A stretch of DNA of 49,372 bases from Escherichia phage Eco_BIFF: sequence record MH285980; one strand, 5' to 3'. The position numbers were made by a program, and so were the translations under genes. The notes under the pieces are model-generated. The model was not told the DNA's origin. It searched no databases and was given only the letters and a program-made list of their open reading frames with translations. Each line of letters begins with the position of its first letter. Positions within the stretch are counted from its first letter, which is position 1. Below are positions 3,363 to 40,936 of the stretch, in pieces.

Positions 3363-4475
3363 ATGAAGGCAAAGCAAAGATTCGATTCAGTAAAAATCAA
3401 GGCGCACTTTGATGATAACGGTTTTTTAGTTGACCGCCCAATCGTGGCGCGAATCGGTGCTCAGGTTTACAAGACTCCGCACGGCGATCGCGTTGAGTTC
3501 CGTCCGGCGTCCGAAGTTTTCAAGCAAGACTCCTTGCAAAGTTTTGCGGGGAAGCCAATTACTGTTGGTCACGTAACGGTAACTCCGCAGAATGCTAAGG
3601 ACGTTGTTGTCGGATCGTGTGCTGGTGCTGGTATTGCTTCAGGGGTTGGCGTTGAAGTTCCTTTGAGTATTTACAGCGACTACGCGATCAGCAAAGCTAA
3701 AGCTAAGGAGGCCGGGGAATTATCTGTAGGGTACACGTCGGTAGATATTGATAAGCCAGGCTGGGGTTCAAACGAGACTGGAGAATATATCTTCGAAGAG
3801 GATATGAAACAGGACGAAGCGCCGCCTGAAGGTTGGGTGAAATTCGACGCGGTACAGACTAATATCAAGGTCAACCATATTGCCCTAGTTTTTAAAGGTC
3901 GTGCGGGAATTGCTAAATTAAATCTTGATGCCGAACAGGAGTTCCCGTATGATAATAACGTTCAATTAACTAACGAGGACAAGCAAATGAAAAAAATTAA
4001 GATCGACTCAGTTGATGTGGAAGTAACCGAAGACGTTGCGAACCATATCGAAAAATTAACCGCGCAGATTGCCACCATTCAGGGGAAAGCTGATGGCTTC
4101 GAAGCTGAGCGCGATGCGCTGAAGGTTAAGGTTGACTCCCTGCCGGAACTGGTTAAGGCCGAGGTAGAGAAGCAAAAAGCCGATGCCGCCGCACGCGCAG
4201 AAGTTACCGCAGTAGCAGAAACCGCAGGCGTCAAACATGATGGTCTTGATATCAAAGACGTCAAAATTGCTGTGGTTAAAGCCATGCTTGATAAAGATGT
4301 TAGTGAAAAATCAGACGCATATATCGACGCTATGTTTGATGTTGCTAAAGATTCTGATATCATGGCTATTCAGCGTAAAGCAGTAAAAGGCGACTCTATC
4401 GAAGGCGGTAAGCCGGAAGAGAAAAACGACACCGCTCCTGTTACGCCAAATTCACGTTTAAGCAAAGTAATGTAA
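3363..4475 (+). CDS. scaffolding / prohead assembly protein with coiled-coil region (putative)
   Basis: RBS CAGGAG before ATG 3363; long Ala/Lys/Glu-rich helical segment (AEVEKQKADAAARAEV); position before capsid genes. Confidence 0.5.
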   Translation: MKAKQRFDSVKIKAHFDDNGFLVDRPIVARIGAQVYKTPHGDRVEFRPASEVFKQDSLQSFAGKPITVGHVTVTPQNAKDVVVGSCAGAGIASGVGVEVPLSIYSDYAISKAKAKEAGELSVGYTSVDIDKPGWGSNETGEYIFEEDMKQDEAPPEGWVKFDAVQTNIKVNHIALVFKGRAGIAKLNLDAEQEFPYDNNVQLTNEDKQMKKIKIDSVDVEVTEDVANHIEKLTAQIATIQGKADGFEAERDALKVKVDSLPELVKAEVEKQKADAAARAEVTAVAETAGVKHDGLDIKDVKIAVVKAMLDKDVSEKSDAYIDAMFDVAKDSDIMAIQRKAVKGDSIEGGKPEEKNDTAPVTPNSRLSKVM

Positions 4476-29152: not shown

Positions 29153-29866
29153 ATGAAAGACTTCAACGATATAGAAACCATCGACTTTGCAGAGACTGGC
29201 TGCTCATTCACTCGCGAAGCAATAGCGTCAGGCTGTTATTATCAGGCATTGAAAACGCCAACCTGCAAAGAGATTTCAGGGCGTCGATACAAGGGAACAA
29301 ATACCCCTGACGCTGTTCGTGATTTATGGTCAACTCCACGCGAGGTTATCGCATACCTTGAGGGGCGCTACGGAAAATATGACCTCGACGCTGCGGCAAG
29401 TGAAGAAAATAAAGTTTGCGATAAGTTTTATTCTCAGGAAACAAACTGCTTAAAACGTTGGTGGGGTAAAAATAAGCATGTATGGTCAAATCCTCCTTAT
29501 AGTCGACCTGATATATTCGTCAAGAAGGCGATCGAGCAAATGGAGCACAACAACCAGATTGATATTCTGTTGCCTGCCGATAATTCTACAGCGTGGTTTA
29601 CTGAGGCGCGACAGCACGCGGCTGAGATTATCTGGATTGAAGCTGATTTGACGGAGGATATCGACGGGAACGAGTACGCCCGATCCGGTCGCCTGGCGTT
29701 CATATCAGGTGAAACCGGGAAGGCCGTTGATGGTAATAACAAAGGTTCGGTAATTTTCATTATGCGCGAACTGAAAGAGGGTGAGGTTCAACAGACTCAC
29801 TATATCCCAATCACAAGCATTTGCCCTTCGGTTAAAAACAAGCGCGCAAAAGTAAGGAAAGTATGA
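29153..29866 (+). CDS. dam: DNA N6-adenine methyltransferase (Dam-type)
   Basis: 237 aa; SAM-binding DLDAAAS and catalytic NPPY motifs; length matches the recalled T1 Dam. Confidence 0.8.
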   Translation: MKDFNDIETIDFAETGCSFTREAIASGCYYQALKTPTCKEISGRRYKGTNTPDAVRDLWSTPREVIAYLEGRYGKYDLDAAASEENKVCDKFYSQETNCLKRWWGKNKHVWSNPPYSRPDIFVKKAIEQMEHNNQIDILLPADNSTAWFTEARQHAAEIIWIEADLTEDIDGNEYARSGRLAFISGETGKAVDGNNKGSVIFIMRELKEGEVQQTHYIPITSICPSVKNKRAKVRKV

Positions 29867-38587: not shown

Positions 38588-38631
38588 ACTATACCCCGAC
38601 TACCTTCGGGGCGTTTAGCAATTCGTGCTAT
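38588..38631 (-). promoter_or_regulatory. promoter cassette (-10 TATAGT)
   Basis: Minus-strand ATAGCACGAATTGCTAAACG + 18 bp + TATAGT after hairpin CCCCGA/TCGGGG; 25 nt before ATG 38556. Confidence 0.5.
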
Positions 38632-38966
38632 TAATCAATATCGAACTCAGCGGCATACGCTTTCTTGAAGCCAGCTTCACGCATGGTACGCTTGCTTATT
38701 TTGCGCGGGAATTTGTACTGGCTGTTAGGCTTAACCCACCAGAAGCATGCAGTCTCGCGGACGATTTCATATTTACCGTAACGGGTGAAGATGTCACGTT
38801 CCGCGTCAGGCTGGTTAACACAGGTCAGGAATTTAGCCGCTTTGTCTTCAGTTTTGATTTCTTCCCATACGAAGGAATCCATGCCGTTAACCTTGCAAGC
38901 TACCATGATGTACTCAACGCCGTTTTCGATTTTGATGATTTCGTTACCGCGATTTTCGTATTTCAT
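38631..38966 (-). CDS. hypothetical early protein
   Basis: 111-aa ORF behind cassette 39005..39048; stop TAA abuts TAGCAC of the next element. Confidence 0.45.
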   Translation of the reverse strand: MKYENRGNEIIKIENGVEYIMVACKVNGMDSFVWEEIKTEDKAAKFLTCVNQPDAERDIFTRYGKYEIVRETACFWWVKPNSQYKFPRKISKRTMREAGFKKAYAAEFDID

Positions 38967-39004
38967 TTTCCTGCTACTGATGTGTATCTCGTTTCGATGA
39001 GGTA

Positions 39005-39048
39005 ATTATGCCAAATCGCACCGATCGAGTTTTAACAAAAAGTGCTAT
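39005..39048 (-). promoter_or_regulatory. promoter cassette (-10 TGGCATAAT)
   Basis: Minus-strand ATAGCACTTTTTGTTAAAAC + 18 bp + CATAAT; stop TAA of 39032..39736 lies inside; 32 nt before ATG 38966. Confidence 0.5.
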
Positions 39049-39736
39049 TTGCGATCGCTTTGAAAAATCCACGCGGCGACAGGGATCGTATCAGCTTAGT
39101 TTTGGCAGACTTGCCGCCCAGCTTGTTTTGCTGTGCAGAGTACCCGTCAGGCAGGTTTACAGGTTTTCTCTCCGGCATAACGAAGTCGTCAGAGGTCCAC
39201 AGACAAGTCTTCTTCGGGTAAGCATCGCGCGGCGCGATATACATCGGGAACCAGGGATGCGCGTCATTCTCAGGAAGATAGCCGCCATACTCCCAGGGAT
39301 TGAAGGAGTGATTTGGTTTTCTCCATGCAGATGACAGGACGCTCACCGGATTCTCAATTATGTAAGTCACGCCCATGCTATCGCCAATGTTCGCGGCAAT
39401 ACGGGCAGTAGCGACAGCTTTCTCCTGGAATAGCGGATCACGTTCACGCTTGCTGGCAAAATGGCGAGCACCACTAACAGCAAGGTCAGTGCATGGATGG
39501 AAGGCCATAATAAAATCCGGTTTGTCATACACACCCGCGATCGTATCACGTTCGAACTTCTCATCAATGAAGACGTTCACATACTCAATGTTCGGATGCT
39601 CTACCCTGGCGTTGTACTTTGCGTAATCTCCGTGATCGGCTCCGTCAAAGTTGAAGCACATCACCTTATGACCTTGCTTTGCCAGTTCATGGCCAGCAAG
39701 ACCGGAACCGTCGAATAGTGACCAAATTAATTTCAT
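39032..39736 (-). CDS. compact DNA (cytosine-5) methyltransferase-like protein
   Basis: C5-MTase-like motifs in order: FDGSGLAG, PC (HPCTDLAVSGA), ENP, C-terminal AIANS; only 234 aa, little room for a target-recognition domain. Confidence 0.45.
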   Translation of the reverse strand: MKLIWSLFDGSGLAGHELAKQGHKVMCFNFDGADHGDYAKYNARVEHPNIEYVNVFIDEKFERDTIAGVYDKPDFIMAFHPCTDLAVSGARHFASKRERDPLFQEKAVATARIAANIGDSMGVTYIIENPVSVLSSAWRKPNHSFNPWEYGGYLPENDAHPWFPMYIAPRDAYPKKTCLWTSDDFVMPERKPVNLPDGYSAQQNKLGGKSAKTKLIRSLSPRGFFKAIANSTFC

Positions 39737-39770
39737 TGTGACTTCCTCTTCTGATTGGTTGATGGCCCGA

Positions 39771-39814
39771 ACTATACCCTGTCAACCTGGTCGAGTCGTT
39801 AGCAAAAATGCTAT
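39771..39814 (-). promoter_or_regulatory. promoter cassette (-10 TATAGT); upstream of C5-MTase-like gene
   Basis: Minus-strand ATAGCATTTTTGCTAAC (N4 variant); motif-to-hexamer distance conserved; 28 nt before ATG 39736. Confidence 0.45.
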
Positions 39815-39999
39815 TCCAATAATTGCTCATTATTCCATCAATACTGGAATAGGTGGAATAATTTTGATTGTTATTGATTGCGAATGATGAAACGTGATTA
39901 TTGCATGGTGTGCAACAGTTGGTTGATTTGTTGCTGAGATTGCAATGATTGTGAGAGGGAGGATTTAGTGTTGCCCTGTTCGCCTGGTAGTCATCTCCA

Positions 40000-40019
40000 T
40001 TTTTAGCAAAAAGTGCTAT
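40000..40019 (-). repeat. copy of the 20-bp element without a properly spaced -10
   Basis: Minus-strand ATAGCACTTTTTGCTAAAAA at the edge of the AT-rich divergent region; hexamer at the cassette position is GAACAG. Confidence 0.35.
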
Positions 40020-40023
40020 CGAT

Positions 40024-40420
40024 TACACTTTAACTTGTCACGACTGTAATATTTGTCTAGAATCGCACTTGTGACAAAAATACACACTGTGACGCCTCAC
40101 AATATACATATAGATATATGTATATATATAATATATATAGTGTTTTTTTTATTTATATATAGATAATTATATTGTAATAGTTGTGTATAGCTGTCTTACA
40201 TTGTCTAGCGTACTGTTGGCATATTTCTATCTGCATGTTTATATATACAGTACTTTTTTGAGAGCCATATATTTCTATAGTGGCTATAGACAGCTAGACA
40301 AATGTTACACGGCTTAAAATTGGCTCGCAGGCATTGACAGCTCTACATCGCGATGTCACAATGGCAATTGTTGACACATTATGACACCATTTACACACGA
40401 ATAGACAAAGAGGATATATT
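40024..40420. promoter_or_regulatory. AT-rich divergent control region with TGTGACA/TGTCACA/CTAGACA repeats
   Basis: Repeated TGTGACA, TGTCACA, TGTCTAGA words and (TA)n tracts between leftward and rightward early clusters; TTGACA boxes at 40334 and 40371. Confidence 0.5.
40334..40362 (+). promoter_or_regulatory. sigma70-type promoter for the first rightward early gene
   Basis: TTGACA, 17-bp spacer, CACAAT; second TTGACA at 40371..40376. Confidence 0.45.
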
Positions 40421-40936
40421 ATGAGCAATACCAGTCAGGAGTTAAAAATCACCGATATGATTCGCCTAACCTGCGATGCAATGTACCGCGACAAAGGCAT
40501 GAATGAGTTCTCTTTCGTGGCTGATGATATGGCCCTCGAGGCCGCGCGATTCTACTTCCGTGACCAGGAGGTAAGTGATGACGATCTTGAATCTGCCGCT
40601 GCCGGATGGGTGGACCAGAACCAGGGGGAGGTAGAGAAGCGATTCAAGTCCGCTTTCATCACTCCGATCATTACCAGGCACTTTTGCAAGTATGGCAAGG
40701 TGGCAAAGGTGAAGGTAGGCCGGAATGACGCTGCAATCACAATGATAACGGTTATCGTTACCGACGAAGAGGTTCCCGTGAAGAAGCGCCGCAGTCGGAA
40801 AAAAGTTAGCCTGGCCGATTGCCTGGATTCGTTTGTGGTTGATGTGGGCAAACTGGCTGATAGCGAATTGATGACTCGTGACGTAAACGAGATCGTTCGC
40901 CAGATGAAAGCGCATATCGAAAAGTGTGGACTGTAA
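40421..40936 (+). CDS. hypothetical early protein (first rightward early gene)
   Basis: 171-aa ORF with RBS AAGAGG behind sigma70-like promoter 40334..40362; GC-richer than neighbours. Confidence 0.45.
   Translation: MSNTSQELKITDMIRLTCDAMYRDKGMNEFSFVADDMALEAARFYFRDQEVSDDDLESAAAGWVDQNQGEVEKRFKSAFITPIITRHFCKYGKVAKVKVGRNDAAITMITVIVTDEEVPVKKRRSRKKVSLADCLDSFVVDVGKLADSELMTRDVNEIVRQMKAHIEKCGL

Follow-up and report, generated by a model that had tools for sequence, protein, structure and literature searches.

The genome of Escherichia phage Eco_BIFF (sequence record MH285980; the whole stretch of 49,372 nucleotides is hereafter called the window) carries at 39032..39736, on the minus strand, an open reading frame (ORF) for a protein of only 234 amino acids. 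This locus raises a question: what does so small a protein do in a phage that also encodes a Dam-type adenine methyltransferase? We conclude that it is probably an orphan, S-adenosylmethionine (SAM)-dependent DNA cytosine-C5 methyltransferase (C5-MTase) belonging to PHROG 757, a family of compact "Dcm-like" phage enzymes, and most likely acting at CCWGG. A preliminary description of this DNA had proposed a compact C5-MTase in addition to Dam, and the proposal is backed by the fold search, by PF00145 matches among relatives, and by a full-length homolog that forms 5-methylcytosine (5mC). The finding is correct but already known, as the ortholog is publicly annotated as a "Dcm-like C5 cytosine methyltransferase."

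A compact methyltransferase family

The coding sequence (CDS) matches the ORF list exactly as it had been described, with an ATG start, 234 amino acids and a stop codon, and a Shine-Dalgarno sequence, GAGGA, can be read 7 nt upstream of the ATG (39744..39748, minus strand). Its product matches PHROG 757 ("DNA methyltransferase") at E = 2.7e-82 over residues 1-231, well outside what chance would give. By tblastn, the family was found in 1516 phage records, including Drexlerviridae, Dhillonvirus, rV5-like phages, phiKO2 and many Klebsiella phages, and a set of 5.8 billion proteins holds 4777 homologs; grouped at 50% identity, there are 1920 clusters. Among the best 120 homologs, most have 225-260 amino acids, and the 150 distant representatives that were listed mostly span ~200-280 amino acids, barring fragments and a few longer proteins. 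Since most full-length members fall within ~200-280 amino acids, the small size is a property of the family and not the result of truncation.

The AlphaFold2 model of the protein (predicted local distance difference test, pLDDT, 89.2; predicted template modeling score, pTM, 0.88) is least confident in the catalytic loop 83-100 (pLDDT 70-79). Its top 44 Foldseek matches are all DNMT3A/B, with E down to 9e-7 and a probability of 1.00. Sequence searches against solved structures, using both the single sequence and a 32-sequence profile, returned no relevant match, and NCBIfam returned none. The hidden Markov model search that the preliminary description had offered as a check came out divided: 20 of 32 family members match PF00145 at E<=1, always over motifs I-IV (best 1.3e-6, 28.5 bits), and P0006, P0008 and P0033 exceed its threshold at 24.7-28.5 bits, while the Eco_BIFF protein alone stays below the cut-off. 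Viewed from sequence only, the link to C5-MTases looks thin; viewed from the modeled fold, the C5-MTase assignment is clear.

Conservation was scored on a 32-sequence alignment and on 224 homologs reaching down to E~1e-35, and all motif coordinates that follow are on the minus strand. Motif I (FxGxG), the SAM-binding loop after strand 1, is present as F8-D-G-S-G12 (39701..39715); G10, S11 and G12 are invariant in the 32 sequences, strand E3-7 precedes the loop in the AlphaFold2 model, and the PF00145 alignment spans residues 6-105. Motif IV, with the catalytic cysteine nucleophile, is P81-C82 (39491..39496), which is at least 95% conserved in the 224 homologs and aligns with GFPCQ of E. coli Dcm; C82 is invariant in the 32-sequence alignment. 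Motif VI is of the ENV type in its ENP variant, E128-N129-P130 (39347..39355), the Glu of which would protonate cytosine N3. It lies at the end of strand E124-130 in the model and is invariant in the 32 sequences and at least 95% conserved in the 224. The canonical motif VIII, QxRxR, was not found, and the 32-sequence alignment has Y173-P-K175-K176-T177 instead. Here K175-K176-T177 (39206..39214) starts the last core strand (E177-181 in the model), and K175 and T177 are invariant.

Farther downstream, T213-K-x-I-R217-S-L-(T/S)-P221-R222-G223-F224 forms a conserved C-terminal block, and the portion R217-S-L-S-P-R-G-F224 (39065..39088) resembles the start of motif IX (RxLTPRE), with R217, S218, P221, R222 and G223 at least 85% conserved. 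When the C-terminal profile was compared with E. coli Dcm, the best local match was RRLTPR at 399-405, which is non-significant, and no motif X of the form GN[AS]V is recognisable in the query. All four motif strings named in the preliminary description are present. FDGSG, PC and ENP stand as family signatures, but AIANS, at 227-231, is no motif of the family; nowhere does the protein vary more than at positions 229-234 (3.0 bits of entropy in the 224 homologs).

Activity is documented in a relative. Phage K42, with a genome 95% identical to that of KarlJaspers/Bas06, was examined in a preprint on retron Ec86 (bioRxiv 10.1101/2023.08.16.553469). All four K42 escapers from the retron had lesions within, or 9 bp upstream of, the 711-bp dcm gene, two of them a C-to-A change 9 bp upstream of its start codon, and expression of K42 dcm was toxic only when Ec86 was present (bioRxiv 10.1101/2023.08.16.553469). 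Expression of K42 Dcm raised 5mC on the multicopy single-stranded DNA (msDNA) of Ec86, as measured by liquid chromatography coupled to mass spectrometry (LC-MS) against a 5mC standard; the quadruple mutant C82A/E128A/K175A/K176A was inert, and the K175/K176 lysines were proposed as substrate-binding residues (bioRxiv 10.1101/2023.08.16.553469). Altering CCTGG in the msDNA stem, at either C, abolished defence, and among 35 phages sensitive to Ec86, drawn from three families, 34 have a gene for a family member (bioRxiv 10.1101/2023.08.16.553469). Later papers cite this as the accepted mechanism by which retron Eco1 is triggered. KarlJaspers Dcm, to which the K42 enzyme is nearly identical, is 55% identical to the Eco_BIFF protein over 229 residues (E 1e-85), and because the numbering of the two coincides, C82, E128, K175 and K176 occupy identical positions in both.

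A second relative, gp52 of Pantoea phage AAS23, is 50% identical to the query and is reported by others to match a solved C5-MTase at an HHpred probability of 99.7%; DNA of that phage resists EcoRII and MboI. For Tunavirus-type enzymes, the literature searched yielded no methylome or restriction data other than those on AAS23 and in the retron paper. One apparent literature match on "Dcm" was actually to deoxycytidine monophosphate (dCMP) and was discarded.

The fold, the conservation of the catalytic residues and the homology to a 5mC-making enzyme are shown; the mechanism that follows is proposed. As the C5-MTase fold and the mutated homolog suggest, the target cytosine would be flipped out of the helix. 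Cys82 of the PC motif would then attack C6 and Glu128 of the ENP motif would protonate N3; SAM would be held by the FDGSG loop, its methyl group passing to C5, and K175/K176 would substitute for the motif-VIII arginines. Recognition of the target would fall to a 33-residue loop, possibly together with the catalytic loop 83-100, compared with a domain of ~100 residues in classical enzymes. The protein would thus be a near-bare catalytic core, structurally closest to DNMT3A/B, whose recognition element is the smallest among C5-MTases, and may form a DNMT3-like dimer. As the probable product of the leading gene in the leftward operon, it would methylate replicating phage DNA, most likely at CCWGG, so that 5mC would add to Dam GATC methylation and might protect the DNA against 5mC-sensitive restriction. 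The corresponding liability would be a methylated msDNA stem-loop that switches on abortive infection by retron Eco1/Ec86.

Target recognition and competing readings

The preliminary description had remarked that the protein leaves little room for a target-recognition domain, and this is borne out: only 33 residues lie between W180, at the end of the motif-VIII strand, and K212 (39101..39199, minus strand), a length shared by 140 of the 224 homologs. This segment occupies the position of the domain, and a target-recognition domain between motifs VIII and IX was not found in the query. Within the interior of the protein, variability peaks at residues 188-205 (2.44 bits in the 224 homologs). The recognition loop comes in at least two discrete classes of identical length, a GYSxQ class (GYSxQxxKLGG) found in the query (loop ...DGYSAQQNKLGG), LeonhardEuler and Envy, and an NPGW class (NPGWxKLGG) found in KarlJaspers and AAS23, whose two loops read ...NPGW(A/K)(K/S)(T/L)GG when written together. 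A family copy was also sought in T5, with the loop class of a trigger in mind, and none was present in the first 50 kb, the only part searched.

A separate specificity subunit or partner nuclease adjoining the gene was considered and rejected, because the neighbours are unrelated across phages and plasmid-borne K42 dcm is sufficient by itself. No nuclease was found beside family members, whose neighbours differ fully among phiKO2, Envy, KarlJaspers, AAS23 and Tunavirus. The enzyme is an orphan, self-sufficient methyltransferase.

Several points weigh against the assignment as a C5-MTase acting at CCWGG. On PF00145 the Eco_BIFF protein alone scores 11.4 bits (E 0.21), relative to a gathering score of 22 bits. 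Similarity to E. coli Dcm was not detected by BLASTP (E 6.3), by hhalign (probability 0.2%) or by sub-profile hmmsearch (non-significant), so specificity is not transferable by homology; "Dcm-like" is a functional label, not orthology. Both experimentally supported enzymes, those of K42/KarlJaspers and AAS23, carry the NPGW loop, whereas the query belongs to the GYSxQ class. The CCWGG target rests only on the msDNA-site mutations, which could also disturb effector contacts, and the AAS23 digest used phage from a host that may have its own Dcm. CCWGG occurs 85 times in Eco_BIFF against 96 expected, and 83 times against 100 in T1, which lacks the gene; with the same counts in both phages, genome composition is uninformative and gives no support for a protective role. 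In the BASEL study, restriction resistance showed no simple relation to the methyltransferase genes of Drexlerviridae, and a proposed anti-restriction role is no more than plausible. Finally, a substitution private to the Eco_BIFF copy, P80H, lies directly before the catalytic Pro-Cys, at a position that is Pro in 96% of homologs; this change appears tolerable.

The loop classes bear on a reading in which the protein is an active DNA C5-MTase whose GYSxQ loop sets a target different from CCWGG, whether shorter, relaxed or simply another sequence. The preliminary description had offered unusual specificity as its alternative, and we hold this reading to be possible, if doubtful. It draws on the occurrence of two discrete same-length loop classes within an otherwise highly conserved protein, the location of the most variable interior segment at 188-205, the lack of homology to the recognition domain of E. 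coli Dcm, and the small size of a 33-residue element for reading 5 bp. The host strain MG1655 is dcm+ and has its own Dcm. Its msDNA was low in 5mC until the phage enzyme was expressed (bioRxiv 10.1101/2023.08.16.553469), which indicates that the phage enzyme does something that host Dcm does not, and modification of msDNA unlike that by the host enzyme would fit a different target. The same preprint mentions toxicity of the enzyme by itself (bioRxiv 10.1101/2023.08.16.553469). However, the presence of a family member in 34 of the 35 Ec86-sensitive phages suggests a common msDNA target, mutation of either C in CCTGG abolished defence, AAS23 DNA is EcoRII-resistant, and the differences between loops may be neutral. 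In its broadest form, which we raise only tentatively, this idea would describe a minimal C5-MTase family whose target is read by the 33-residue loop, perhaps as a DNMT3-like dimer, and whose loop classes may encode different targets; the Eco_BIFF enzyme would then not be a CCWGG methylase, and "Dcm-like" would be partly a misnomer.

Other readings change the substrate, the transferred group or the state of this copy. The enzyme could act on RNA, like DNMT2 in forming 5-methylcytosine in tRNA, or could take single-stranded or hairpin DNA and not duplex phage DNA as its substrate. Indeed, msDNA, which is a small stem-loop DNA, is the sole substrate demonstrated for a homolog, and the recognition element is minimal. 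With AAS23 virion DNA resistant to EcoRII and the msDNA target lying within a double-stranded stem, we consider this very improbable. No more credit is due to the transfer of a non-methyl group, for example carboxymethyl from carboxy-SAM (Cx-SAM) as in CmoX, with E. coli CmoA as a possible supplier of the cofactor. The fold is similar, the canonical motif X Asn (whose replacement by Arg or Lys switches the cofactor) is not recognisable, and an invariant Arg222 stands in the C-terminal block. Yet LC-MS on the K42 homolog recorded the rise against a 5mC standard, and no cmoA or cmoY-type ligase adjoins the gene; its neighbours are PHROGs of unknown function, and the collinear T1 annotation has none either.

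We also regard it as unlikely, although less so, that the Eco_BIFF copy is weakened or inactive via P80H and en route to loss as in T1. This reading is favored by the 96% conservation of P80 and its retention as Pro in the close relatives P0001 and LeonhardEuler, by the dispensability of a gene that T1 lacks, by the homolog in Shigella phage vB_SflS-ISF001 with its substitutions at invariant P81, G208 and P221, and by retron pressure, which selects for loss. It conflicts with an intact frame in which all catalytic residues are kept: of 42 positions that are at least 85% conserved, 39 are retained, and just three deviate, two of which (P124T and T220S) are common to the clade of the query. In classical C5-MTases, moreover, the residue before Pro-Cys is variable. 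Relative to these alternatives, an active orphan C5-MTase with CCWGG as its most likely target is the reading that we favor.

Site counts were also obtained for sequences other than CCWGG. CCSGG occurs 2 times against 11.7 expected in KarlJaspers (MZ501090) and is over-represented in Eco_BIFF (68 vs 49) and T1 (65 vs 45). Among 6-bp palindromes, CCWWGG (0; 13 expected), RCCGGY (2; 28) and AAGCTT (0; 19) are strongly avoided in the window, as are GAATTC (2; 11 expected), CAGCTG (1; 11) and CTGCAG (1; 6). GATATC, the EcoRV site, is not avoided (31 vs 28 expected), and GATC is mildly low (237 vs 303). T1 has the same pattern of palindrome avoidance as Eco_BIFF.

The locus and its flanks

By megablast, the Eco_BIFF window belongs to Tunavirus (T1-like, Drexlerviridae) and is ~90-92% identical to LeonhardEuler (Bas13), Sfin-1, EF3-1 and others. 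It is collinear with T1, with 93-95% identity in the structural genes by blastn. A 1.16-kb segment at 38597..39757, comprising the methyltransferase gene and a 111-amino-acid ORF, is not in T1: blastn homology ends at 38596 (T1 48715) and restarts at 39758 (T1 48694), and tblastn of the methyltransferase protein against T1 found nothing. The absence from T1 marks the gene as accessory within Tunavirus. The 9-bp microhomology ACTATACCC flanks the segment, occurring at both insertion junctions (38588 and 39771), and suggests gain or loss by microhomology-mediated recombination.

The homolog in vB_SflS-ISF001 (P0002), 84% identical to the Eco_BIFF protein, carries P81Q in the Pro-Cys motif together with G208S and P221Q at otherwise invariant positions, and looks like an inactivated copy or a product of sequencing errors. 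Taken with T1, which has no copy, this substituted homolog indicates that the gene is dispensable and sometimes decaying in Tunavirus. Such a pattern of loss and decay is consistent with a gene that helps against restriction but carries a cost in the presence of retron Eco1.

The co-inserted ORF (38631..38966, minus strand, in the ORF list) matches PHROG 29431, of unknown function, at E = 4.9e-76 and has no match in Pfam; it also adjoins the methyltransferase gene in LeonhardEuler. Directly after it, at the left edge of the insertion, lies a GC-rich hairpin, CCCCGA...TCGGGG (38598-38615). This hairpin could be the terminator of the two-gene block, although it has no clear T-run and was not called by the terminator scan.

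That the methyltransferase is the first gene of a leftward block, as had been proposed, agrees with the ORF list and with the comparison to the LeonhardEuler annotation. Upstream, a non-coding region of 684 bp (39737..40420), with no ORF of note, extends to a divergent rightward gene at 40421, and one or more promoters should lie within it. A promoter and terminator scan around the gene gave weak promoter-like matches only; directly upstream, none was convincing as a sigma-70 promoter, and no intrinsic terminator was called. With no strong promoter or terminator found, the "early" designation of the block remains an assumption.

The same region has several features of its own. The end and start of the T1 GenBank record (48836/2; the start of a 2.8-kb terminal repeat) map to 39899/39901, a point ~165 bp upstream of the ATG of the methyltransferase gene; if packaging is T1-like, the gene would adjoin the physical genome end or the pac region. 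An AT-rich tract of TATA repeats at ~40100-40260, within the intergenic 40045-40379, is flanked by a 16-nt inverted repeat, TGTAATATTTGTCTAG / CTAGACAAATGTTACA, whose arms are 94% complementary and 233 nt apart, and a second intergenic inverted-repeat pair contains TGTCACAA. These inverted repeats are possible operator sites for divergent promoters.

The second methyltransferase of the phage, the Dam-type N6-adenine enzyme at 29153..29866 (plus strand), was confirmed by PF05869 (E = 2e-68) and is collinear with the T1 ST20 "DNA methyltransferase." Virion DNA is accordingly predicted to hold 5mC as well as N6-methyladenine (6mA), which bears on restriction mapping, nanopore base-calling and host-range engineering of T1-like phages, and the gene marks Eco_BIFF as a probable target of retron Eco1/Ec86. 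For annotation, we propose the name DNA cytosine-C5 methyltransferase (PHROG 757, K42-Dcm family) in place of "hypothetical." The mechanistic interest lies in how so small an enzyme chooses its target and whether the loop classes differ in specificity.

In vB_EcoS_SA30RD (OL960579), the methylase at 3475-4176 is annotated as a 549-bp CDS, and tblastn aligns all 234 query residues there at 94% identity. The full-length alignment indicates that the annotated start is probably too far downstream.

Comparison with known systems

The nearest counterpart is bas13_0055 of LeonhardEuler (Bas13), the "Dcm-like C5 cytosine methyltransferase" mentioned above, an ortholog with 94% protein identity at the same locus and with the same downstream 111-amino-acid ORF. 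Relative to it, the Eco_BIFF copy has 13 substitutions, including P80H. Equivalents of the gene are also present in Sfin-1, pSf-2, SH6 and EF3-1.

The K42/KarlJaspers (Bas06) Dcm resembles the Eco_BIFF enzyme in family, in length class (236 and 234 amino acids, respectively), and in being encoded by an orphan gene in a leftward block of a Drexlerviridae genome that also has Dam. It differs in that KarlJaspers belongs to the genus Hanrivervirus and not Tunavirus, the gene is internal to its block and not first, the loop is NPGW and not GYSxQ, and position 80 is Pro and not His.

Beyond phages, the best structural match is to the catalytic domains of DNMT3A and DNMT3B, at only 12-16% identity; the DNMT3 domain exceeds the Eco_BIFF protein by ~50 residues, recognises CpG and acts as a dimer or tetramer with DNMT3L. 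Relative to enzymes of the M.HhaI / M.HaeIII type (PF00145), the Eco_BIFF protein is ~90 residues shorter, has KK for QxRxR and lacks a recognisable motif X. With E. coli Dcm / M.EcoRII, the namesake (472 amino acids versus 234), only the Pro-Cys region aligns, and the Eco_BIFF enzyme has neither an equivalent of the recognition domain nor a vsr partner. What the two would share is the presumed 5mC product, together with CCWGG, the target claimed in the literature.

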